Source of the DNA: Candidatus Saccharimonadota bacterium
GTDB lineage: Bacteria; Patescibacteriota; Saccharimonadia; Saccharimonadales; JACDBH01
Length of the DNA stretch: 64,000 nucleotides
Reading direction: 5' to 3'
NCBI GenBank assembly: GCA_028289135.1
Contig: JAQGGW010000003.1
Coordinates: 2,015 to 66,014, forward strand
Part shown: piece by piece, positions 2,954-52,530 of the stretch
Position numbering within the stretch: the stretch's first letter is position 1
Layout of the letters: each line of letters opens with the position of its first letter
Position numbers and translations under genes: made by a program
Notes under the pieces: model-generated
Database searches by the model: none
Told to the model about the DNA's origin: nothing
What the model saw: only the letters and a program-made list of their open reading frames with translations

Positions 2954-3493
2954 CTATTTTTTGTCTTCGTCGGGTTTGGGAGCCGGCAGGTTTTTGGTGT
3001 GAGGAAATTCGGCGGCGGTTTTGATGGTCTGCTGCAGTGTCTCAACGACGCGCTTGGCGTGGTCCAGACTCATCCCAACCCGTGAAACAGCCAGAGGCTG
3101 CCCGTTTTGGCCGGCATTTTGCATAAAGTTCATAACAACCCCGTATTGGTTAATCATAACCTGGAAGGTGTCGCTGTAGACAATCCGCGCGTCCATTGGC
3201 AAAAGCATAATGGCTGGCTGCTGGCCCAGGATCTCTTCCGACGCGCCCTGCTTTTCGTCGTAGCCGGCAAGGTCCCAAAGCTGGTCGGACTCTTCGTCAC
3301 GGAGGTTAAAGTGCGTAATAAGCAGCTGCAAAATGTCTTCGCTAGGGCGGACTTCACCCTTTTCATAGGCCGTAAGGCGATCGTCTGTAATTTCTACAGC
3401 ACCAGACACTTCCGCCAGGCTTTCTTGCATACGCGTCCTAATACGAGCTAGCTCGTCACCAAGGGGTTTAAATGGGGTTTCTCCTCGTTTCAT
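2954..3493 (-). CDS. XRE-family helix-turn-helix transcriptional regulator
   Basis: N-terminal HTH-like segment (LARIRTRMQESLAEVSGAVEITDDRLTAYEKG). 179 aa, divergent from murB with only 23 nt between the start codons. Confidence 0.6.
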   Translation of the reverse strand: MKRGETPFKPLGDELARIRTRMQESLAEVSGAVEITDDRLTAYEKGEVRPSEDILQLLITHFNLRDEESDQLWDLAGYDEKQGASEEILGQQPAIMLLPMDARIVYSDTFQVMINQYGVVMNFMQNAGQNGQPLAVSRVGMSLDHAKRVVETLQQTIKTAAEFPHTKNLPAPKPDEDKK

Positions 3494-3516: not shown

Positions 3517-4584
3517 ATGACTAAAAATGCAATCAAACGCGCTATACTAATGCTTATGGATATGCAGGAAAACGTCTCTCTAAGCGGTTATTCGACCATG
3601 CGTCTTGGTGGCAAATCTGACTATTTTGTTGAGGCTAGGACAAAAGAAGACCTTGTAGCTGCGGCGGAGTGGGCAGACGAGCATGCTGTGCCGCTTCGGG
3701 TAATTGGCGGCGGCAGTAACATCATCTGGCGCGACGAGGGCTTTAAAGGTCTTTTGGTGGCAAACAAAATCCCCGGCTTTGAGAAAATAAATGAAGACCA
3801 CATAAGCGTAACCTACACATTTGGAGCAGGCGAAAACTGGGATGAAACAGTCAGAAAAACAGCTGAAATGGGGCTTTATGGGATTGAATGTTTGTCGGCG
3901 ATCCCAGGAACCGTTGGTGCAACCCCCGTCCAGAACGTTGGAGCCTATGGCCAGGACATTTCGCAGACAATGGTGAGCCTTGAAGCTTATGATTGCGTTG
4001 AAAAAAAGTTTGTAACACTCCACGGCGGTGACTGTGATTTTGGATACCGGACTTCACGGTTTAAAGGCGCGGACAATGGCCGCTTTCTAATTAGCTCAGT
4101 CGCCCTAAAACTACAAAAAAATCCGCCGGCGGCATTGTGGTCGAATTCGCTTAAGGACTACCTTGAAACTCATAATATTACCGAGCGCGATCCAATGACT
4201 TTTCGTAATGCTATTATTGCCATCCGCGCCGCAAAGCTGCCCGACCCTGCAGTTGTTGCCAATACCGGATCATTTTTTGCGAACCCGATAATATCAGACG
4301 CTGAGCTTGCCAGGATCTGGGTTAATTTCCCCGACATGCCGGCCTGGGAAGTTGGCAAGGACAGTCAAAAACTATCGGCTGGCTGGATGATTGAAGCCGC
4401 TGGGTTTAAAGGATATAGCGATCCAGAAACTGGAATGGCCACCTGGAAAAACCATGCGCTCGTGATCGTGAACGAACATGCCGAAAGCACCGGAGACCTT
4501 ATGAAGTTCCAACAAAAAATCAAAGACAAAGTCGAAGAGCTGTTTGGGGTTAGGCTAGAACAAGAACCGGAGCTTTTGCCTTAG
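3517..4584 (+). CDS. murB: UDP-N-acetylenolpyruvoylglucosamine reductase
   Basis: YSTMRLGG and VIGGGSNI FAD-binding motifs and a MurB-like C-terminal domain. Start may be the internal MLMDMQ instead. Confidence 0.88.
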   Translation: MTKNAIKRAILMLMDMQENVSLSGYSTMRLGGKSDYFVEARTKEDLVAAAEWADEHAVPLRVIGGGSNIIWRDEGFKGLLVANKIPGFEKINEDHISVTYTFGAGENWDETVRKTAEMGLYGIECLSAIPGTVGATPVQNVGAYGQDISQTMVSLEAYDCVEKKFVTLHGGDCDFGYRTSRFKGADNGRFLISSVALKLQKNPPAALWSNSLKDYLETHNITERDPMTFRNAIIAIRAAKLPDPAVVANTGSFFANPIISDAELARIWVNFPDMPAWEVGKDSQKLSAGWMIEAAGFKGYSDPETGMATWKNHALVIVNEHAESTGDLMKFQQKIKDKVEELFGVRLEQEPELLP

Positions 4585-4620: not shown

Positions 4621-5088
4621 ATGCCCCAACATTCACTTTTGTATTTAGATCCACATAATGCTGAACATACACCCCTTATTGTTAATGGCCTTAATATGGG
4701 CAACGACTGGGATTCCGCTGAACTTGCAGCTGACTACATCGAGCAGGGTGTTAGTAACTTATGCAGGTGGAATGCTGAAGTAATAGTACTACAAGAGGCG
4801 AATGAACCTTTGGCTATGACTGCTTGGTATGCCACAAGAGGCCCCGAGCTCATTGGCTTGGCTAGCATCAACTATGTGTATACTGCTAAACAACAAAGAA
4901 GACTAGGTTATGGCGCTTTAGTGATTCATGCCGCCGAAGACCGAGCACGAGAGCGAGGCTTTCAGCATATATGGTTGTCCTCGGTTAGGTCGGCTGTCCC
5001 GTTTTATGAAGCACTTACTTATAGAGTCCCAGATGGTGAGACTTTAGGAAAAATGCTTACACGAATGACAAAAGATCTCACAGACTAA
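4621..5088 (+). CDS. GNAT-family N-acetyltransferase
   Basis: Acetyl-CoA-binding style motif QQRRLGYGALVIHAAEDRARERG. 155 aa, visibly AT-richer than its neighbours. Confidence 0.65.
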   Translation: MPQHSLLYLDPHNAEHTPLIVNGLNMGNDWDSAELAADYIEQGVSNLCRWNAEVIVLQEANEPLAMTAWYATRGPELIGLASINYVYTAKQQRRLGYGALVIHAAEDRARERGFQHIWLSSVRSAVPFYEALTYRVPDGETLGKMLTRMTKDLTD

Positions 5089-6359
5089 CTAGGCAGCGGG
5101 AAGTCGGCCGCGAACTTAGTTATTTCGCTGTGCAGTCCGGCCAGCTTCTTATCGTCTTTATGGTTCTTGACTGCATCGTTGATCCAGTCGGCGACCATGA
5201 CCATGTGCTCTTCTTTCATGCCGCGGGTTGTCAGTGCTGGCGTGCCTAGACGAATGCCGCTTGGGTCAAATGGTGAGCGCGGGTCAAACGGCACAGTGTT
5301 TTTGTTGACGGTAATTCCAGCAAGGCCCAAAGCCTTTTCGCCCTCTTTGCCGCTGATGTTTTTGTTGTTAAGGTCAATTACCATCAAGTGGTTATCGGTG
5401 CCGCCAGTAACGATATTAAAGCCTCTCTGCAGCAGTTCGGCGGCCAGCTTTTTGGAATTTTTAACTATCTGTTTGCCATATTCTTTAAATTCTGGCTGGA
5501 GAGCTTCGCCAAGGGCAACGGCGATGGCAGCAGTCTGGTGGTTATGCGGCCCGCCCTGCAAACCCGGAATTACTGCACGGTCAATGAGTGAGGGAATGTT
5601 TTCGACAGTTCGCTCTGGTTTCTTTAAAGGGTTAGAAGGGTTCCCGTTGGCCAAAATCATCGCTCCCCGCGGACCACGCAGCGTCTTATGAGTTGTTGTC
5701 ATAATTACATCAACTATTCCTGCCGGACTTGGATGCTCCCCAGCAACAACCAATCCGCTAATGTGCGAAATGTCGGCCGCCAAAAAAGCACCTGATGCAT
5801 CGGCGATCTCGCGCATTTTTTTCCAATCAATAATGCGCGGGTAGGCCGTGGTGCCGCTCATAATTAGCTTTGGTTTGTGCTCCATTGCAAGCTGCATAAT
5901 TGCGTCGTAATCCATAAAGCCGTCTTTGTCGGTTGTATACTGCACAGAGTGGTAGTATGTGCCGCTAAAGTTCACTTTTAACCCATGCGTCATATGCCCG
6001 CCAAAATAAAGCGACATGCCCATGACAGTGTCGCCTGGGTCGACCAACGCAAAATATATGGCCTGGTTAGCCGGGCAGCCAGAGTGCGGCTGGACATTGG
6101 CAAAGCTTACGCCAAACAGTTCTTTGGCCAGGTCGCGCGCCAAATTTTCGACTTTGTCTACTACTTCACAGCCGCCATAGTAGCGCATACCAGGATAGCC
6201 TTCGGAATATTTGTCGGTTAAAATTGAGCCCGAGGCCTCACGGACCGCTACCGAAGAGTGGTTTTCGCTCGGAATCATTTCCAGCCCCTGGCTTTGGCGT
6301 GCCCGCTCTTCTTCGATAAGTTTCTTTATTTGTGCGGTAACATTTTTATCATTTGTCAT
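5085..6359 (-). CDS. glyA: serine hydroxymethyltransferase
   Basis: SENHSSVAVREASGS, YSEGYPGMRYYGG, and the PLP-lysine motif TTTHKTLRGPRG. 424 aa. Confidence 0.97.
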   Translation of the reverse strand: MTNDKNVTAQIKKLIEEERARQSQGLEMIPSENHSSVAVREASGSILTDKYSEGYPGMRYYGGCEVVDKVENLARDLAKELFGVSFANVQPHSGCPANQAIYFALVDPGDTVMGMSLYFGGHMTHGLKVNFSGTYYHSVQYTTDKDGFMDYDAIMQLAMEHKPKLIMSGTTAYPRIIDWKKMREIADASGAFLAADISHISGLVVAGEHPSPAGIVDVIMTTTHKTLRGPRGAMILANGNPSNPLKKPERTVENIPSLIDRAVIPGLQGGPHNHQTAAIAVALGEALQPEFKEYGKQIVKNSKKLAAELLQRGFNIVTGGTDNHLMVIDLNNKNISGKEGEKALGLAGITVNKNTVPFDPRSPFDPSGIRLGTPALTTRGMKEEHMVMVADWINDAVKNHKDDKKLAGLHSEITKFAADFPLPS

Positions 6360-6401
6360 ACTTTTACCCGCTCTTTCCTAGTTTAACGCCCAGTTATTGT
6401 A

Positions 6402-6523
6402 AGGGTTTCGTACTTTAGTGCAGTTTGGCCAAACAATCGAGCACCGGATTCGGAGTGTATACAGAAATACATGTAGAAACGGAGCGGAGATTTTTGGCCG
6501 AAATGTGCAAAGTACGGAAGCCT
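6402..6523. repeat. long imperfect hairpin element, copy 1 (homologous to 37884-38044)
   Basis: The arm at 6402-6430 pairs with 6496-6523, about 27 bp with bulges and G-U pairs. It shares TAGTGCAGTTTG, CGAG[C/T]ACC, AGCGGAGAT and AAATG[T/C]GCA with the second copy. Confidence 0.6.
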
Positions 6524-6641
6524 GCTCAGTTATGTTGCGTTTCATTAGATCATGGGTGTATTGTAGTTGATGTAACGCAAAAAATAAAAAAATCCGGCAA
6601 TATCGACAAAATATACCGTTCTTGATATAGTAAACAAGCTT

Positions 6642-8165
6642 ATGAATACAACCAGCGAGAAAATTGGTCACTTAATTTACCAAGTACGGCAAGAAAAAGG
6701 CCTAACCCAGGCTGAATTTGCCAAACGGCTGAACACATCGCAGTCGGCAGTTAACCGTATTGAACACGGGCACCAAAACCTTAGCATGGATATGCTAGGC
6801 CGGATTAGCGATGTTTTAAACAAGCAGATTATTAGCCTAAACACCAACGCCGTTTCACTCCGGATTGAAGGCGGCCACAAACTAAGCGGTGAGATTTCGG
6901 TTAAAACCAGCAAGAACGCTGCCGTTGGCCTGATCTGCGCTTCGCTACTTAACAAAGGCACGACCAAACTTAAGTCCGTTGCCCGCATCGAAGAAGTTAA
7001 CCGCCTGGTTGAAGTGCTTGAAAGCATTGGCGTAAAAGTCCGTTGGCTGCCCGGAAACGACCTGGAGATCAAACCGCCCGCCAAACTTAATCTTGAAAAT
7101 ATCAACGGTATAGCCGCACGCAAAACCCGCAGCGTTATCATGTTTGTCGGCGCGCTAATGCACGATTATAAAGAATTTAAGATCCCCTATGCCGGCGGCT
7201 GTGAACTTGGCAAACGAACGGTTTTGCCGCACATTTACGCGCTTGAAGAATTTGGAACGAACATCATCGCCAAAACCGGGCATTACAACATTACGTCCAA
7301 GCTCAAACTCCCAAAGCGCGATGTGGTTTTGTACGAATCCGGCGATACAACTACCGAAAACGCCTTGATGGCCGCGGCTGGATTTGAAGGCGAAACGGTT
7401 ATTAAAATGGCAAGCGCTAACTATGCAATCCAGGACATGTGTTTCTTCTTGCAAAAGCTCGGCGTCAAAATTGACGGCATCGGCACGACAACTTTGCGCG
7501 TCCGCGGCCAAAAGCGCATGAAGAAAAACATTAGCTACGCTCCAAGCGAAGACCCGGTTGAGGCCATGACTTTTATTGCGGCCGCGATTGCGACCGACTC
7601 AACGATTACTATCAAGCGCGCGCCGATTGACTTCTTAGAACTTGAACTTTTAAAGCTAGAAAAAATGGGACTGCGCTATGACACAAGCGAAAAATACAAG
7701 GCTGAAAATAATAAAACCGACCTGGTTGACCTAACTATCCACGAACACAATGGCAAGCTGATTGCGCCGGAAGACAAGCTCTATGGCCGCCCTTTCCCTG
7801 GCCTAAACATCGACAACTTACCGTATTTTGTGCCGATTGTAGCTGTTGCCAAAGGCCGCAGCATGATCCACGACTGGGTTTACGAAGACCGCGCGCTGAT
7901 GTTTACCGAAATGAAAAAGATTGGCGTTGACCTGGAGCTAGCCGACCCGCACCGGGTGTTTATTAACGGCCCAACCCGCTGGCGCGCCGCCGATTTAGTT
8001 TGCCCAAGCGGCATCCGCCCGGCAGTTATTATTTTAATCGGCATGCTGGCCGCAACCGGCACCTCCATGCTTCGCAATGTCTACACAATCAACCGCGGTT
8101 ATGAAGACCTGGCCGAGCGTTTGAATTCCCTTGGTGCGCACATCGGCATCGTTCACGAAGTATAA
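6642..8165 (+). CDS. murA: UDP-N-acetylglucosamine 1-carboxyvinyltransferase with N-terminal XRE-type HTH domain
   Basis: Residues 1-65 form an HTH (LTQAEFAKRLNTSQSAVNRIEHG). The rest is MurA/EPSP-synthase fold (GGHKLSGEISVKTSKNAA) with an active-site loop AGGCELGKRTVLPH that retains the Cys. Confidence 0.85.
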   Translation: MNTTSEKIGHLIYQVRQEKGLTQAEFAKRLNTSQSAVNRIEHGHQNLSMDMLGRISDVLNKQIISLNTNAVSLRIEGGHKLSGEISVKTSKNAAVGLICASLLNKGTTKLKSVARIEEVNRLVEVLESIGVKVRWLPGNDLEIKPPAKLNLENINGIAARKTRSVIMFVGALMHDYKEFKIPYAGGCELGKRTVLPHIYALEEFGTNIIAKTGHYNITSKLKLPKRDVVLYESGDTTTENALMAAAGFEGETVIKMASANYAIQDMCFFLQKLGVKIDGIGTTTLRVRGQKRMKKNISYAPSEDPVEAMTFIAAAIATDSTITIKRAPIDFLELELLKLEKMGLRYDTSEKYKAENNKTDLVDLTIHEHNGKLIAPEDKLYGRPFPGLNIDNLPYFVPIVAVAKGRSMIHDWVYEDRALMFTEMKKIGVDLELADPHRVFINGPTRWRAADLVCPSGIRPAVIILIGMLAATGTSMLRNVYTINRGYEDLAERLNSLGAHIGIVHEV

Positions 8166-8170
8166 ATGCT

Positions 8171-9829
8171 CTAGTGGGCGGCTGGAGGGCCGGCGACTGA
8201 TTCATTGTGCTCAATGTGCTTGCCGCCAGGCAGCTGGGTTGAAGCTACGAATGCTAACGCCATAAACACAACCGTATATAAAATTGCGGTTTGTGAAGCG
8301 GATGTTGTTGAAGTGTCGCTTAAAGATTTTATTTCCTGCTTTTCTGCCGGGTTAAGTGTCTGCACGGTTTGCAGCTTGCCGCCGAACTCAACTGCAGATG
8401 ATTGCGCGGACACTTCCTGGGCAATTGATGCCCGCTGCGAACTTGGAATTACCGGACTATTCGAGATGCCGCTTGTTAGATGACCAGAGAGCGTTGTTAG
8501 CAGTACCGCGCCGACGATCGCCGAACCAAGTGAAGACCCGATTTGACGCATTGTGTTGTTAACACCCGATGCTTCACCCGCTTCGTTTACCGAAACGGCT
8601 GACAAAGTCAGGTTGCTTATCTGCGCCATGCCAAGGCCCATGCCGATACCGTATAGTGCCAAGCCTGGCAAAAGGCTAAGCGCGGATGAATGAACAGACA
8701 TTGAAAAGCGGATCAAAATTAACGCGGCAACGTCTAGCACCAGCGCGACCTGGATAATACGCTTAGGCGTAAATTTCTTTGACAGCACAGCGCCCGAAAA
8801 AGGCGCGGCGACTAACAGGCCGACAGAAAGCGGCAGCAACCCGTAACCCGTATGCAGGGCGTCAAGGCCGTGTACGCTCTGAAGGAAAACTGGCACCGCA
8901 AACAACAAGCCAACCTGGCCAAGCGACATTATCATTGTGGTGACCGCGCCCGAAGTAAACTGTTTGTTTTTGAATAGTTTCATTGATACAAGCGGTGTTT
9001 TGTTTCGGCGTACCATGCTCTGTTCCCAGGCTACAAATAGGCTAAGCAGTACCACCGACAAGGCAAGCATTACTGGGACGATAGAAACCGAACCAAAGCT
9101 TATGGCGTGGCCGGCAACAGTAAAGATTTTTTGTGCGTGCAGCCAGCCGTACTGAGCGCCTTCAATAATGGCAAACACCCCGGCCAGCAGGCCGAATGAA
9201 GACAAGAGCACACCCACAAAGTCGATCGTTGGCTTTTCTTCAAGGTCGTGCGAGTCTTTGATAACAACAGAACCGATAAGCAGTAGTGCGGCCACAAAAA
9301 CGTTAATCCTAAAGCCCCAGCGCCAGCTATAGTGGCTGGTCAAAAAACCGCCCACAACTGGTCCAATTGCTGAACCAACCGCTGCCATTCCTCCCCAAAC
9401 ACCAAGCGCAGTCGCGCGGTCATGGCCTTTATAAGTTGCAACTAAAAGCGACGATGTTGCCGGCAGCATAAGCGCCGCGCCGATACCTTCGATGATAGAC
9501 TCGCCGATCAGCAACATACCGACAGAATGGCTAAGCGAAGCCAGCAATGAACCTGCAGCAAAAATAACCGCGCCTGCCATGAACAAGCGTTTACGGCCAA
9601 ACAAGTCTCCCAAACGCCCGCCCGTAATCGTCAGGGCGGCAAGTGTTAGGGCATAGGCGGTAATAACCCACTGGATGGCCTGGATGTTGGTGTGAAGCTC
9701 ACGGATGATTGTGCCAAGTGAAACGTTAAGCAGCGTCGTGTCGATAACGATAATCAAAACTGCCATGCCAAGTACAACCAGCGGCAGCCATTTTTTTAGT
9801 CCTGTTGGTGCGTGTGTTTCCGTGTTCAT
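8171..9829 (-). CDS. MFS transporter, DHA2 (14-TM drug:H+ antiporter) type
   Basis: MFS motif A GGRLGDLFGRKRLF and many TM helices over 552 aa. RBS GGAG lies inside the end of the upstream marR. Confidence 0.85.
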   Translation of the reverse strand: MNTETHAPTGLKKWLPLVVLGMAVLIIVIDTTLLNVSLGTIIRELHTNIQAIQWVITAYALTLAALTITGGRLGDLFGRKRLFMAGAVIFAAGSLLASLSHSVGMLLIGESIIEGIGAALMLPATSSLLVATYKGHDRATALGVWGGMAAVGSAIGPVVGGFLTSHYSWRWGFRINVFVAALLLIGSVVIKDSHDLEEKPTIDFVGVLLSSFGLLAGVFAIIEGAQYGWLHAQKIFTVAGHAISFGSVSIVPVMLALSVVLLSLFVAWEQSMVRRNKTPLVSMKLFKNKQFTSGAVTTMIMSLGQVGLLFAVPVFLQSVHGLDALHTGYGLLPLSVGLLVAAPFSGAVLSKKFTPKRIIQVALVLDVAALILIRFSMSVHSSALSLLPGLALYGIGMGLGMAQISNLTLSAVSVNEAGEASGVNNTMRQIGSSLGSAIVGAVLLTTLSGHLTSGISNSPVIPSSQRASIAQEVSAQSSAVEFGGKLQTVQTLNPAEKQEIKSLSDTSTTSASQTAILYTVVFMALAFVASTQLPGGKHIEHNESVAGPPAAH

Positions 9830-9830
9830 T

Positions 9831-10271
9831 TTATTTCTCCTTATTTTCTGCGATTGTGCTGTTTAGTTTTTTCAAAATACCCAAGAAAGTTTTAAGCTCT
9901 GTGTCATCAAGCGTGCCCATGGTCGACTCAAAACTGGCGAGGTAATTATGCCGCACCTGTTCCACCTGTTCTGTGCCTTTTTTAGACAGCAGAATGTGCA
10001 CAATGCGGCGGTCCTGGGTGTCCTGTTCTCGTTTTACCAGACCAAATGTTGCGAGGCCGTCAACCAGCTGCGTCACTGCACCGCTAGAGATTCTTAGTTC
10101 AGCCGCGATCTCCTTTACCGTTAAAGACTTATGCTTTGAGATTAAAAACAAAAGCTGGCCCTGCGCTGGAGGCACATTTGGCCCAAGCGGCGCCGACACG
10201 GAGTGAAAAATTATCCGCTTTAGTTCTGCGAATTCTCCGGCGACTTCTTCGATTAGTTTGTTCTTTGTCAT
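9831..10271 (-). CDS. MarR-family transcriptional regulator
   Basis: Winged-HTH LTVKEIAAELRISSGAVTQLVDGL...DRRIVHILLSKKG. 146 aa, immediately upstream of the MFS gene. Confidence 0.85.
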   Translation of the reverse strand: MTKNKLIEEVAGEFAELKRIIFHSVSAPLGPNVPPAQGQLLFLISKHKSLTVKEIAAELRISSGAVTQLVDGLATFGLVKREQDTQDRRIVHILLSKKGTEQVEQVRHNYLASFESTMGTLDDTELKTFLGILKKLNSTIAENKEK

Positions 10272-37883: not shown

Positions 37884-38044
37884 TAGGGATTACTTACAGT
37901 AGTGCAGTTTGTTCGAAAAGCGAGTACCGAAGCGGAGATGTACGGAATGGTATATTGAGCATCGGAACACACTCTACCCCACAAAGCAGGCTTTGCGGGG
38001 ACCCTTAGCTTTTCGGACAAAATGCGCACTGTATGTAAGCCCTA
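37884..38044. repeat. long imperfect hairpin element, copy 2 (homologous to 6402-6523)
   Basis: The arm starting at 37884 (TAGGGATTACTTACAGTAGTGCAGTTTGTTCGAAAAG) pairs with CTTTTCGGACAAAATGCGCACTGTATGTAAGCCCTA ending at 38044. Inner hairpin CCCCACAAAG-CAGG-CTTTGCGGGG. Fills a convergent intergenic gap. Confidence 0.6.
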
Positions 38045-51153: not shown

Positions 51154-52530
51154 TTATTTGGGCAGATTGAATGACTTTTTTATGTCACTGACTAAAAGTT
51201 GGGTTTTAATGCTTAAGTCGTCGTCTTTGGCCATAATTTTGCCAAACTTTGTAACTTTGATAATACGCCTGCCTGTACCAATCAGATCGCCTTTTTTGTA
51301 CCTGCACAAAACCAGTACCATATCTTCGCCTTTTAGATCACTTACAGAGTAGGCGGGCTTTACAAATTCGAGCTTGCCGTCTTTGTAGAGGTAAATACCC
51401 GGATGGATTGTTTCTTTTAGTTCAAAGTCCACTTCAAGCGGGTTGTTAAAAATCATAAACGACACCGGCTTTTTATAGCGGCCGGCACTTGGAAGTTTGT
51501 CAGTGTCTGTTACTTCGTAATCAAAGTTACCCAGCTCCAAAGCGTGCAACAGCAAGAACGGGATCTTGCCTTCGTTCAGCTGCATATCACTAATAAGGTG
51601 CGAATAACCGGTGTGGCGGGCGTTGATTTCAATGGCATAGACTTCGTTTTCTGGTGTTACGATCAGGTCAATCCCAAAGATGCCCTTATAGCCGTGGCTG
51701 GCAAGCTCCGAACCGACTACCGAAGCGATCTCGCGCGACTGGTGCTGCACAATGTCTGGATATTCCACGCCAACTTCACCGCCGCACCACTTTGTCGTGC
51801 CTTCGAGCTTTGGATTGCAAAGATATTTGCTGGTCACGAGCTGGCGCTGGATGCCGCCACTAAAAATACCGTACTTGGTAATGCAAACCTGGATGCTTGA
51901 TGTCTGTCCGGCAACGTAGCGCGAGACAACGACCGAGCGGCCCTGGGAGAATTTCTTAAGCAGCTTAACGGCGTCTACAAATTCATCATAATTGTGGACG
52001 ATGTAAGTCCCGCGTGAACCAAATGATTCTTCGTCCTGAAGCACCATCGAAGTGCCAAGCTCTTCGCGGAGTTCGCGGTAGGATGCAGCCTTGTCGAGTT
52101 CGGAAATATACTTAATTTCGTATTCTGGCATTCGGATCAGGTCGGCAAATTCGTCGCGGAAATAACGCTTGTTTTCGTAGGCGTGCGCGATGGTTGGCGA
52201 GTTCATGAGCAGCGCCAGCGGGTTTACTTTATAAGGCGGATCAACTGGCGAATACAGCAAATACTTGCGCTTTGGCTCGCTTTTAGTTAGTTCAACAAAC
52301 TTCTTTAGCTTAACCAGGCGGGACACACCTTCAATGGCATTAGTTTCCATGCCAAGATCACTAATGCTGCCTTTGAGCGGCAGTTCGTAGAGCCATTCCT
52401 GGCGCTCGCCAGTTACAATTTTAAAATCATCAAAAAACTGGTCGTGCAGCAAGAAAGTAAAGGGGTCGTCGTGAATTGCCCCGACCTGTGTCGAGCGGTT
52501 GTACTGGATCGCGTTTGAGAGTTTATGCAT
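51154..52530 (-). CDS. ATP-grasp domain protein with N- and C-terminal extensions, unknown substrate
   Basis: Central ATP-grasp motifs are SRGTYIVHNYDEF, SRYVAGQTSSIQV and GIFGIDLIVTPENEVYAIEINARHTG. 458 aa. Confidence 0.7.
   Translation of the reverse strand: MHKLSNAIQYNRSTQVGAIHDDPFTFLLHDQFFDDFKIVTGERQEWLYELPLKGSISDLGMETNAIEGVSRLVKLKKFVELTKSEPKRKYLLYSPVDPPYKVNPLALLMNSPTIAHAYENKRYFRDEFADLIRMPEYEIKYISELDKAASYRELREELGTSMVLQDEESFGSRGTYIVHNYDEFVDAVKLLKKFSQGRSVVVSRYVAGQTSSIQVCITKYGIFSGGIQRQLVTSKYLCNPKLEGTTKWCGGEVGVEYPDIVQHQSREIASVVGSELASHGYKGIFGIDLIVTPENEVYAIEINARHTGYSHLISDMQLNEGKIPFLLLHALELGNFDYEVTDTDKLPSAGRYKKPVSFMIFNNPLEVDFELKETIHPGIYLYKDGKLEFVKPAYSVSDLKGEDMVLVLCRYKKGDLIGTGRRIIKVTKFGKIMAKDDDLSIKTQLLVSDIKKSFNLPK

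Follow-up and report, generated by a model that had tools for sequence, protein, structure and literature searches.

The window analyzed here, the whole stretch of 64,000 nucleotides, contains a gene that encodes in one frame an XRE-type helix-turn-helix (HTH) domain followed by a UDP-GlcNAc enolpyruvyl transferase (MurA; Table 1). Peptidoglycan synthesis starts with MurA, the enzyme that fosfomycin targets. A full-length MurA joined in-frame to an N-terminal HTH had been proposed by a sequence-only reading of this DNA, and the proposal was borne out by a single open reading frame (ORF), in which Pfam assigned residues 12–62 to HTH_3 (PF01381; 54.2 bits vs. a cutoff of 23, E = 1.4e-14) and residues 76–494 to EPSP_synthase (135 bits). 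The ORF listing placed ATG 6642 as the first start downstream of an in-frame stop. The segment LTQAEFAKRLNTSQSAVNRIEHG corresponds to residues 21–43 of the fusion protein. The Cys loop, which the same reading had recognized as retained, was found at residues 184–197 (AGGCELGKRTVLPH). Its statement that canonical MurA lacks a DNA-binding domain agreed with the solved MurA structures, which are 417–458 aa long and include none with an HTH. In the databases the fusion proteins are annotated as "MurA" or as "helix-turn-helix domain-containing protein", never as both.

Table 1. Features at and around the HTH-murA gene, with positions in the window.
Feature	Position	Strand	Basis or remark
murB, next pathway enzyme	3517..4584	+	Pfam FAD_binding_4 plus MurB_C; 2 kb upstream of the fusion
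glyA (serine hydroxymethyltransferase), conserved divergent neighbor	5085..6359	-	Pfam SHMT, E 3e-157; cluster 3 in the synteny table
Predicted sigma-70-type promoter: -35 TCGACA 6603-6608, 17-nt spacer, TG-extended -10 TATAGT 6626-6631	6603..6631	+	Promoter scan
Putative operator, 18-bp imperfect dyad TATACCGTT/CTTGATATA	6612..6629	.	Overlaps promoter spacer and -10; no binding data
HTH-murA gene	6642..8165	+	Single ORF, 507 aa plus stop; Pfam, NCBIfam, >80 full-length orthologous loci
XRE/Cro-C1-type HTH domain, residues 2-62	6645..6827	+	HTH_3, AF2, nearest folds, dN/dS
Recognition-helix segment TSQSAVNRIEHG, residues 32-43	6735..6770	+	Residue conservation
Flexible inter-domain linker, residues 63-75 (~10 residues flexible)	6828..6866	+	AF2 pLDDT, sequence variability
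MurA (UDP-GlcNAc enolpyruvyl transferase) body, residues 76-507	6867..8162	+	EPSP_synthase, PDB, Foldseek, catalytic residues
Catalytic Cys loop AGGCELGKRTVLPH, Cys187 codon 7200-7202, Arg192	7191..7232	+	Alignment to solved MurAs

The gene order murB > glyA < HTH-murA > was conserved in ~20 Saccharibacteria loci. According to Pfam, no restriction-modification or toxin genes were located next to the fusion. The spacer between glyA and the fusion gene (6360–6641) contained no known RNA in Rfam, either at the gathering thresholds or at relaxed E-values. A structured element at 6402–6523 had been pointed out beside the gene, and the fold itself was real, with the + strand folding at −58.3 kcal/mol (z −7.8). 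A functional link to murA was not found. The hairpin belongs to a ~135-nt insertion (6396–6530) that is missing from the closest orthologous spacers (L003 and L004). It is also a member of a dispersed repeat family, which recurs in the window at ~37885–37971 and has further copies on unrelated metagenome contigs. It was thus rejected as a regulatory element of murA or glyA.

The best 120 matches to the fusion were all ~507 aa long with both domains, and the species-representative genomes contained 507 confirmed relatives. The ~505-aa architecture was present in hundreds of Saccharibacteria and in many other classes of Patescibacteria, where 113 of 118 fusions kept all eight catalytic positions. 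The sequence-only reading had raised its spread in CPR genomes, and there it is indeed widespread; however, it is not confined to them, and it is common in some actinobacteria. Within the Actinomycetota it was found in Dermatophilaceae/Intrasporangiaceae, Nonomuraea, and Streptomyces, the carriers including Janibacter, Intrasporangium calvum, Humibacillus, Knoellia, Nonomuraea, and one Streptomyces strain. Carriage on plasmids was rejected, since in a plasmid collection searched by tblastn the fusion occurred only on chromosome-sized records (Nonomuraea gerenzanensis and Streptomyces sp. BHT-5-2) and on no true plasmids.

The predicted promoter of the window gene gave 10 of 12 matches plus the TG in the promoter scan. 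Only 10 nt lie between its −10 box and the ATG, and they include no Shine-Dalgarno sequence. A −10-like hexamer was located 7–10 nt ahead of the start codon in 25 of 27 Saccharibacteria loci, only one of which had a Shine-Dalgarno-like motif, and a TAnnnT hexamer stood 6–8 nt ahead of the start in all 53 actinobacterial loci. Because the −10 box and the dyad overlapping it are so close to the ATG and no Shine-Dalgarno sequence is present, the HTH-murA mRNA is predicted to be probably leaderless or nearly so.

A conserved 18-bp palindrome overlapped the −10 box in the promoter of the fusion gene itself, with its 3′ end 6–14 nt before the start codon. It read TATAyCA-N4-TGrTATA in Saccharibacteria and TATCTCA-N4-TGAGATA in actinobacteria, and the actinobacterial operator consensus, with the halves TATCTCAyA and TrTGAGwTA, was met at 53 of 53 loci. 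The dyad was 10–12 nt from the start in 20 of the 26 Saccharibacteria comparison loci and in all 53 actinobacterial ones, and it was also detected in Paceibacterota, Doudnabacteria, and another CPR contig. At the Intrasporangium/Janibacter site it was perfect (TAACTCATATATGAGTTA), and in the window only 5 of 9 pairs were symmetrical. The window site nevertheless had the top score of a position weight matrix (PWM) in the 64 kb (16.8 bits vs. 12.7 for the next), and the two next-best sites, at 51865 and 54809, were inside ORFs. In three close unfused MurA relatives, the dyad was missing, and neither a hidden HTH nor a neighboring HTH gene was present. In the alignments compared here, the existence of the palindrome, its fixed position and its HTH-linked distribution are established. 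The phylogeny indicated that gene and putative operator moved together from Saccharibacteria to Actinomycetota.

In 661,617 bp of actinobacterial loci, the PWM detected no other operator match, even at 4 bits under the weakest true site. Nor did the scans of these 662 kb, of 290 kb from Saccharibacteria loci, and of the 64-kb window reveal convincing extra sites that could form a regulon. When the residues of the recognition helix and the bases of the operator were compared, by eye only, no clear pattern of covariation was apparent; this comparison was not counted as evidence.

Degenerate HTH-MurA-like paralogues were also found (P0130, P0131, P0140, P0144, P0152, P0169, P0179, and P0406–P0410). 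They had lost the catalytic residues but not the fold or the recognition helix of the HTH, and the operator was kept at four of the five degenerate-paralogue loci examined, the exception being L001 with P0152. At three loci representing two contexts (L083, L085, and L086), the paralogue was divergent from an unfused murA-murB operon, 60–84 nt away, and lay upstream of ddl and mur-ligase genes. Judged by their residues, these dead paralogues with HTH and operator are a natural separation of function; they only illustrate the capacities of the scaffold once catalysis is lost.

It has to be considered whether the palindrome is bound by some other regulator, or is a mere promoter feature, with the fused HTH binding elsewhere or non-specifically, for example in nucleoid localization. 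The conservation of the Saccharibacteria dyad could in part come from the promoter alone, because in these AT-rich genomes the right half-site coincides with the extended −10 (TGnTATAAT), and murB has a further XRE-type gene (HTH_31 plus DUF3467) as a conserved neighbor, a possible source of another regulator. However, an 18-bp AT-rich palindrome at the ~70% GC of the actinobacteria far exceeds the TAnnnT of a promoter, and the HTH_31/DUF3467 gene is missing from the dyad-bearing actinobacterial and other CPR loci. The dyad also moved with the gene across phyla, was kept beside the catalytically dead paralogues, and is missing from the unfused relatives. This explanation therefore appeared improbable to us, although it keeps some weight.

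The best PDB match of the MurA body was MurA 5ujs (E = 2e-50), and the top 43 Foldseek matches were all MurA, with TM scores of 0.85–0.91 normalized to the target (AF2 pLDDT 88). The E. coli residues K22, N23, R91, C115, R120, D305, R371, and R397 correspond to K91, N92, R163, C187, R192, D391, R459, and R485 of the window protein; the E. coli reference was cross-checked against PDB alignments. These eight catalytic or ligand positions did not vary among 28 Saccharibacteria and 53 actinobacterial fusions (81 in total), bar one C-to-D replacement. Of the 28 Saccharibacteria sequences, 27 had the catalytic Cys and one had Asp; the actinobacterial count for the Cys was 52 of 52. The Cys loop aligned with the GGC.IG.R loop of solved MurAs. 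In contrast, the Asp expected at the position of E. coli D369, the neighbor of Arg371, is replaced by Gly in the window protein. This position is Gly or Ala across the whole CPR-type subfamily, both fused and unfused, where classical MurAs have Asp, and the replacement is a trait of the subfamily rather than a peculiarity of the fusion. The protein scored above the cutoff of the NCBIfam subfamily PRK09369 (NF006873; 315.9 vs. 297) and below that of the murA equivalog TIGR01072 (299 vs. 392.7). The body was under purifying selection, and no second MurA homologue was found in the 64-kb window. For the window gene alone, the most likely assignment is an active MurA, the housekeeping enzyme of the first committed step, its activity being inferred.

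The other possibility is that the fusion is not the housekeeping MurA, and instead represents a paralogous enolpyruvyl transferase or chiefly a ligand-sensing transcription factor with a MurA-fold sensor. The failure to reach the TIGR01072 cutoff and the replaced D369 equivalent are both compatible with this; the degenerate relatives are clearly non-enzymes, the Nonomuraea fusion co-exists with other MurA homologues, and NikO is an example of the same fold serving other substrates. Yet the invariance of the eight tested residues in 81 fusions, the PRK09369 score, the conserved synteny with murB, and the purifying selection on the body all speak for the enzyme. Furthermore, the degenerate fusions of L083, L085, and L086 adjoin an unfused active murA, which implies that at other loci the activity comes from the fusion. 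We thus regard a role other than that of housekeeping MurA as unlikely, with little weight left to it.

In the AF2 model, the HTH forms a four-helix bundle (helices at residues 2–18, 23–29, 34–41, and 49–59) without the fifth helix that dimerizes many XRE proteins. Its nearest solved folds were DNA-binding XRE dimers, namely C.BclI, C.Esp1396I, C.AhdI, HipB, ClgR, and SinR, and among the closest solved relatives are restriction-modification (R-M) controller proteins in complex with their operator DNA. Residues T32, S33, Q34, A36, R39, E41, and G43 were invariant in 70 sequences from Saccharibacteria and Actinobacteria, and the recognition-helix residues were at least 82% conserved in the other CPR fusions and the degenerate paralogues. 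The dN/dS of the HTH was ~0.02 against L003 and L004, and its dN was below that of the enzyme body; by this measure, purifying selection on the HTH is strong. The linker was the most variable segment, with a dN of 0.25–0.68 in five of six Saccharibacteria comparisons (none with L003), 42% identity between Saccharibacteria and Actinobacteria, and a pLDDT of ~50 in the AF2 model at residues 61–69. Together, the architecture, its conservation, the intact catalytic residues, and the selection on the HTH are demonstrated within the limits of comparative data.

An HTH of this kind might also serve as a protein–protein interaction module that tethers MurA to the cell-wall synthesis machinery. The XRE-like HTH of RodZ binds MreB, and the RodZ type consists of HTH_25 followed by a transmembrane segment. 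Besides this precedent for protein binding, mreB was the divergent neighbor of the fusion in one Paceibacterota locus, and the lack of a dimerizing fifth helix would be in line with such a role. However, the best match was to HTH_3, Pfam found no HTH_25 in the fusion protein, RodZ was absent from the 59 PDB sequence matches and the top 50 structural matches of the HTH, which were all DNA binders, and what follows the HTH is a soluble enzyme with no transmembrane segment. A RodZ-like HTH was rejected as unlikely on the grounds of these neighbors and the missing HTH_25. The interaction hypothesis also leaves unexplained a palindrome that is restricted to HTH-bearing genes and holds a fixed position on their own promoter in two phyla, and we consider it very unlikely. 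That the fusion is an artefact, in which a small HTH gene was merged with murA through misassembly, a frameshift error, or a miscalled start codon, is virtually ruled out: no supporting point was found, neither the window nor any of >80 orthologous loci (GC 37–75%) had a stop or frameshift between the domains, the full-length fusion is one continuous ORF in hundreds of independent assemblies from two phyla, including isolate genomes and complete actinobacterial chromosomes, in most orthologous loci the start is preceded by an in-frame stop only a few codons away, and an internal Met start is contradicted by the promoter-like −35 and extended −10 directly before ATG 6642 and by the low dN/dS of the HTH codons. 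Both the assembly error and the internal start, which the sequence-only reading had named as what would refute it, were rejected, and the fusion is, on this comparative evidence, not an assembly artefact.

The best reading of these data is a bifunctional, self-repressing MurA, which we hold to be likely, with DNA binding and enzyme activity both inferred. The C-terminal 430 residues would act as MurA in peptidoglycan synthesis, and the N-terminal HTH, probably as a dimer, would bind the 18-bp palindrome over its own −10 (6612–6629) and block RNA polymerase, resulting in negative autoregulation of murA. That the fused HTH is the binder of the palindrome, and that binding means repression, are inferences. 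Autoregulation had already been suggested by the sequence-only reading, and the occurrence of a palindrome over the gene's own −10 only with the HTH gives the idea strong comparative support, in the absence of binding data. More speculatively, the ligand state of MurA (UDP-GlcNAc, PEP, or tightly bound UDP-MurNAc) may modulate DNA binding. In PDB structures, MurA traps UDP-MurNAc together with the PEP–Cys adduct (3swg, 3su9, 3swd, and 8d84). Trapped UDP-MurNAc as the signal for DNA binding is plausible, and remains only a hypothesis.

Several points weigh against self-repression by a bifunctional MurA. The support is computational, with no experimental data. It is unclear how a dimer would form on the palindrome, as the HTH has four helices and MurA is usually monomeric. 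The flexible linker, as modeled, offers no obvious route for allosteric coupling. The window dyad is imperfect, in AT-rich Saccharibacteria its right half falls on the extended −10, and no additional operator sites, and hence no regulon, were observed in the available sequence. The TIGR01072 score under the cutoff and the Gly or Ala at the D369 position count against it as well.

We tentatively propose a wider picture, which as a whole is doubtful: HTH-MurA would be a ligand-gated trigger enzyme and the standard control of murA in much of the CPR, and its scaffold would have been repurposed twice. As part of this picture, HTH-MurA would signal the flux through the first committed step directly to its own promoter via its occupancy by UDP-GlcNAc, PEP, or UDP-MurNAc. 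The first repurposing would have produced dead sensor-regulators between murA-murB and ddl/mur-ligase operons; in the second, a self-regulated cassette of gene plus operator would have passed from epibiotic Saccharibacteria to Actinomycetota and been kept as an extra MurA.

If self-repression holds true, much of bacterial diversity (Patescibacteria/CPR) would tie the level of MurA, and possibly the status of its precursors, to murA transcription, and a domain built into the enzyme would be a compact control for genomes with few regulators. The paralogues with a dead enzyme domain can be regarded as candidates for new cell-wall gene regulators. The gene flow from Saccharibacteria to Actinomycetota is a well-supported case, and the recipient phylum includes known Saccharibacteria hosts. 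Since the cassette, with a clearer operator, is present in cultivable actinobacteria, the hypothesis is directly testable.

A full-text search of open-access papers and preprints found no description of an HTH-MurA fusion, which does not exclude a mention elsewhere. To our knowledge, direct transcriptional self-control by MurA has not been described. The known control of MurA is post-translational, through feedback by UDP-MurNAc and, in Firmicutes, ClpCP/ReoM-dependent proteolysis, and involves no built-in DNA-binding domain. The fusion has the two-domain fold, the Cys loop, and the catalytic residues in common with canonical MurA (E. coli, E. cloacae, Campylobacter, and the Gram-positive MurAA/MurAB). 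It differs in its extra N-terminal HTH and in belonging to the divergent CPR-type subfamily, with G/A for D369 and G(I/L)N.DNLP for GFPTDxQ. The degenerate paralogues resemble pseudoenzyme transcription regulators in keeping the enzyme fold, the HTH, and, at 4/5 loci, the operator, whereas the window protein keeps every catalytic residue and hence is no pseudoenzyme.

The closest HTH folds and sequences are those of R-M controller (C) proteins (C.Esp1396I, C.AhdI, and C.BclI), 434 Cro/cI, SinR, HipB, and ClgR. C proteins and small XRE repressors bind as dimers to palindromic operators that overlap their own promoters, and the predicted operator of the fusion is placed likewise. Some C-protein transcripts are leaderless. 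These regulators are stand-alone proteins of 70–110 aa with a dimerizing helix 5, whereas in the fusion four helices are tethered to a 430-aa enzyme.

The trigger enzymes BirA (biotin ligase and bio repressor), PutA (proline dehydrogenase and put repressor), and NadR carry, as the fusion does, an enzyme and a DNA-binding domain in one polypeptide. We know of no peptidoglycan-pathway enzyme described in this class. The DNA-binding domain is an XRE HTH in the fusion, a winged helix in BirA, and a ribbon-helix-helix in PutA, and the enzyme family of the fusion, the MurA/EPSP-synthase fold, is also different. Ligand-dependent DNA binding defines BirA, whereas for the fusion it is only a hypothesis. 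Like the trigger enzymes, the fusion is predicted to repress genes of its own pathway, in this case its own gene. Both of its domains are under purifying selection and its catalytic residues are intact, so the fusion has the architecture of a trigger enzyme with two apparently functional domains. What is new here, on the evidence of the loci compared, is the conserved palindrome on the promoter of the fusion gene.

The HTH and MurA segments lay in one ORF, as the sequence-only reading had proposed, and the strings it quoted were found at residues 21–43 and 184–197. The ATG at 6642 was the first start codon downstream of an in-frame stop, and Pfam placed HTH_3 at residues 12–62 (54 bits, E 1.4e-14) and EPSP_synthase at residues 76–494 (135 bits). 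In NCBIfam, the body was assigned to the MurA subfamily PRK09369 (315.9 bits vs. a cutoff of 297), while the strict murA equivalog model TIGR01072 gave 299 against a cutoff of 392.7. The closest solved structures were MurA enzymes (top 5ujs, E 2e-50) of 417–458 aa, all without an HTH, in agreement with the view that canonical MurA carries no DNA-binding domain. The AlphaFold2 model (70-sequence alignment; pLDDT 88, pTM 0.82) comprised a four-helix HTH at residues 2–59, a low-confidence linker at 61–69 and a confident MurA body, which superposed on solved MurAs with TM 0.85–0.91.

The best 120 database matches were all ~507 aa with 100% query coverage and both Pfam domains, and several were named Saccharimonadales; a scan in which each species was represented by one genome confirmed at least 507 relatives. 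The ORF was unbroken by frameshift or stop between the domains in more than 80 fetched loci with GC contents of 37–75%, and the upstream in-frame stop was mostly just a few codons from the start. Against the two closest orthologues, dN/dS of the HTH codons was ~0.02, and dN was 0.021–0.036 in the HTH vs. 0.064 in the enzyme body, the linker being the variable segment. An artefactual origin of the fusion was ruled out by this conserved architecture, continuous ORF and low HTH dN/dS.

The Cys loop was retained, with Cys187 encoded at 7200–7202. Equivalents of E. coli K22, N23, R91, C115, R120, D305, R371 and R397 were all present, and across 28 Saccharibacteria and 53 actinobacterial fusions a single Cys-to-Asp change was the only variation at these eight positions. 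PDB alignments served to check the E. coli reference sequence. The equivalent of Asp369, at which (as at L370) substitutions in E. coli MurA are linked to fosfomycin resistance, was residue 457 (8010–8012) and was Gly/Ala in the motif C-P-x-[GA]-[IL]-R-P, a trait of the entire CPR-type MurA subfamily, fused or unfused. The fusion was taken to be the housekeeping MurA because it was the only MurA homologue in the window and belonged to a conserved block containing murB; the homologue count covers the window only, and activity is inferred.

The block from the HTH_31/DUF3467 gene to HTH-murA was conserved in Saccharibacteria. Its first gene was divergent from murB at a distance of 23 nt, a pair kept in ~15 Saccharibacteria loci and in L084, and encoded another XRE-type protein, uncharacterised and likewise linked to a peptidoglycan gene. 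The MFS/MarR part of the neighbourhood differed among Saccharibacteria genomes.

Features of the window and of related loci (window coordinates unless a locus is named)
Feature	Position	Strand	Remarks
HTH_31/DUF3467 gene	2954-3493	-	conserved block
murB	3517-4584	+	conserved block
GNAT	4621-5088	+	conserved block
glyA	5085-6359	-	conserved block
Hairpin element	6396-6530	+ (strongest fold)	-58.3 kcal/mol, z -7.8
Putative operator	6612-6629		imperfect dyad, half-sites TATACCGTT and CTTGATATA; top PWM site
HTH-murA	6642-8165	+	single ORF, 507 aa
MFS transporter + MarR-family regulator	8171-10271	-	directly 3' of murA, convergent
Repeat, second window copy	~37885-37971		
Repeat copies, L092	1695-1820; 5776-5900		metagenome contig
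Repeat copies, L093	4041-4166; 8832-8902; 1-85		metagenome contig
Dead HTH-MurA-like paralogue, L083	5211-6740		
Dead HTH-MurA-like paralogue, L085	9975-11477		
Dead HTH-MurA-like paralogue, L086	10001-11503		
Dead HTH-MurA-like paralogue, L084	10001-11467		
Dead HTH-MurA-like paralogue, L001	10001-11554		

A structured element had been noted beside the fusion, and its strong fold was real (-37.2 kcal/mol on the minus strand). A link to murA did not hold, as the hairpin was an insertion that the closest orthologous glyA-murA spacers lacked, and a member of a dispersed structured-repeat family (~130 nt) in Saccharibacteria-like contigs, two of them unrelated metagenome contigs. Compensatory changes were found in 11 of the 33 predicted pairs (five copies), and no match to the repeat was found in Rfam; the family may consist of small RNAs or of MITE- or REP-like elements. 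The insertion sat between glyA and a conserved block, TTAGATCATnnnTGTATTGTAG (~6545–6570), which occupied the same position on the glyA side of many Saccharibacteria glyA-murA spacers and may be the glyA promoter or leader.

An 18-bp AT-rich palindrome, with halves TATCTCAyA and TrTGAGwTA, lay directly upstream of the start codon in every actinobacterial fusion locus (~70% GC), ending 10–12 nt from it (perfect in TAACTCATATATGAGTTA; ATCTCATATGTGAGAT in Nonomuraea). A PWM built from 23 distinct actinobacterial sites found no further match in 661,617 bp of actinobacterial loci, even with the threshold set 4 bits under the weakest true site. Saccharibacteria carried a related TATAyCA-N4-TGrTATA at the same position; the window site was the best in all 64 kb (16.8 bits vs. 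12.7 for the next), and the two next-best matches fell within ORFs. The same dyad also preceded active fusions in Paceibacterota (TATATCACATATGATATA), Doudnabacteria (TATAGCATATACGCTATA) and on another CPR contig (TATATCACATATGATATC). No such dyad, hidden in-frame HTH or neighbouring HTH gene was present in three close unfused MurA relatives.

The dyad overlapped the -10 box, so that a protein bound there would occlude RNA polymerase. A TAnnnT hexamer began at the final two bases of the dyad, 6–8 nt upstream of the start, in all 53 actinobacterial loci, and 25 of 27 Saccharibacteria loci had a -10-like hexamer 7–10 nt upstream and no Shine-Dalgarno; the window promoter read TCGACA-17-TGaTATAGT, followed by 10 nt to the ATG. 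Given this proximity and the missing Shine-Dalgarno, a leaderless or almost leaderless mRNA is predicted.

In one small clade of fusions (P0130, P0131, P0140, P0144, P0152, P0169, P0179 and P0406–P0410), the Cys loop was gone, as were most catalytic residues, including the PEP-binding Arg residues, and the recognition helix TSQSA(V/I)xR(I/M)ExGxQN was retained. In L083 and L085/L086, the pseudoenzyme gene was divergent from an unfused murA-murB operon at 60–84 nt and had ddl and/or mur-ligase genes after it. The operator lay in the shared spacer, as TATAACATATATGCTATA in L083 and as TTGACA-ATATATCATATATGATAT, 12 nt upstream of the start, in L085/L086. The L084 pseudoenzyme held the Saccharibacteria-type position after murB and relA/spoT, with ATATCAAATATGATAT upstream. 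In these loci, HTH and operator were thus kept as a pair without catalysis, which, judged from sequence, has no easy explanation other than binding of that DNA by the HTH. These paralogues may form a new family of pseudoenzymes that regulate cell-wall genes.

The fusion was present in Saccharibacteria and several further CPR lineages. A search seeded with a divergent member found 118 more (~505 aa) from Paceibacterota, Parcubacteria, Doudnabacteria, Liptonbacteria, Taylorbacteria and Colwellbacteria, with all eight catalytic positions kept in 113. Unexpectedly, the same fusion was common in Actinomycetota (57–61% identity including the HTH; loci L029–L082, and L002 and L091 from Nonomuraea). 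It occurred in many genera of Dermatophilaceae/Intrasporangiaceae (Janibacter, Knoellia, Intrasporangium, Humibacillus, Phycicoccus, Nostocoides, Terrabacter, Dermatophilus, Kineosphaera and others), in Nonomuraea and in one Streptomyces strain (sp. BHT-5-2, match H2). In Dermatophilaceae the gene kept the same chromosomal position, flanked by fatty-acid beta-oxidation genes on one side and dxs on the other. In Nonomuraea NEAU-A123 the fusion adjoined an integrase, and in Nonomuraea gerenzanensis it was an extra copy beside other chromosomal MurA homologues. Fusion and operator were seen together in many Dermatophilaceae/Intrasporangiaceae and in some Streptosporangiales and Streptomyces.

In a bootstrapped neighbour-joining analysis of 56 MurA bodies (432 columns), with other CPR fusions and unfused relatives as outgroup, the actinobacterial fusions were monophyletic (99/100) and sister to the Saccharibacteria subclade L025, L026, L027 and L031 (100/100), which retained the ancestral glyA-murA synteny. 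Saccharibacteria without actinobacteria were never monophyletic (0/100); the overall grouping of both was weakly supported (30/100). This nesting suggested transfer from Saccharibacteria into Actinomycetota, the phylum to which their known hosts belong, and a single transfer of gene plus operator was the most economical reading, within the limits of a simple method.

Public annotation makes the architecture visible, under the NCBI names 'MurA' or 'helix-turn-helix domain-containing protein'; no published account of the fusion, of its operator or of the pseudoenzyme paralogues was found in open-access full text. We consider it likely, without experimental proof, that this MurA is bifunctional and uses its N-terminal HTH to repress its own leaderless promoter. 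The HTH would occupy the dyad over its own -10 box, exclude RNA polymerase and so repress murA. The architecture and its conservation are observed, as are the intact active site and the selection acting on the HTH, and so are the operator's existence, its position and its HTH-linked distribution; binding of the HTH to the dyad and repression by that binding are inferences. The HTH lacks helix 5, which leaves dimerisation of two HTHs without an identified basis. MurA traps UDP-MurNAc and a PEP-Cys adduct (PDB entries 3swg, 3su9, 3swd and 8d84); speculatively, ligand state might gate DNA binding, for which the flexible linker is a difficulty in signal transmission. The fusion is real and widespread, and on this reading it would be a form of an essential antibiotic-target enzyme that regulates itself and has gone unrecognised; its operator is clear and testable, and it has cultivable carriers.

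By sequence and fold, the isolated HTH came nearest to XRE dimers that bind DNA: restriction-modification controller proteins (operator-bound C.Esp1396I among them), as well as HipB, ClgR, SinR and 434 repressor, with no RodZ among these neighbours. The body is structurally a MurA of a divergent subfamily. In its proposed function, the fusion resembles autoregulatory XRE proteins such as the controller proteins, and the enzyme-repressors BirA, PutA and NadR.
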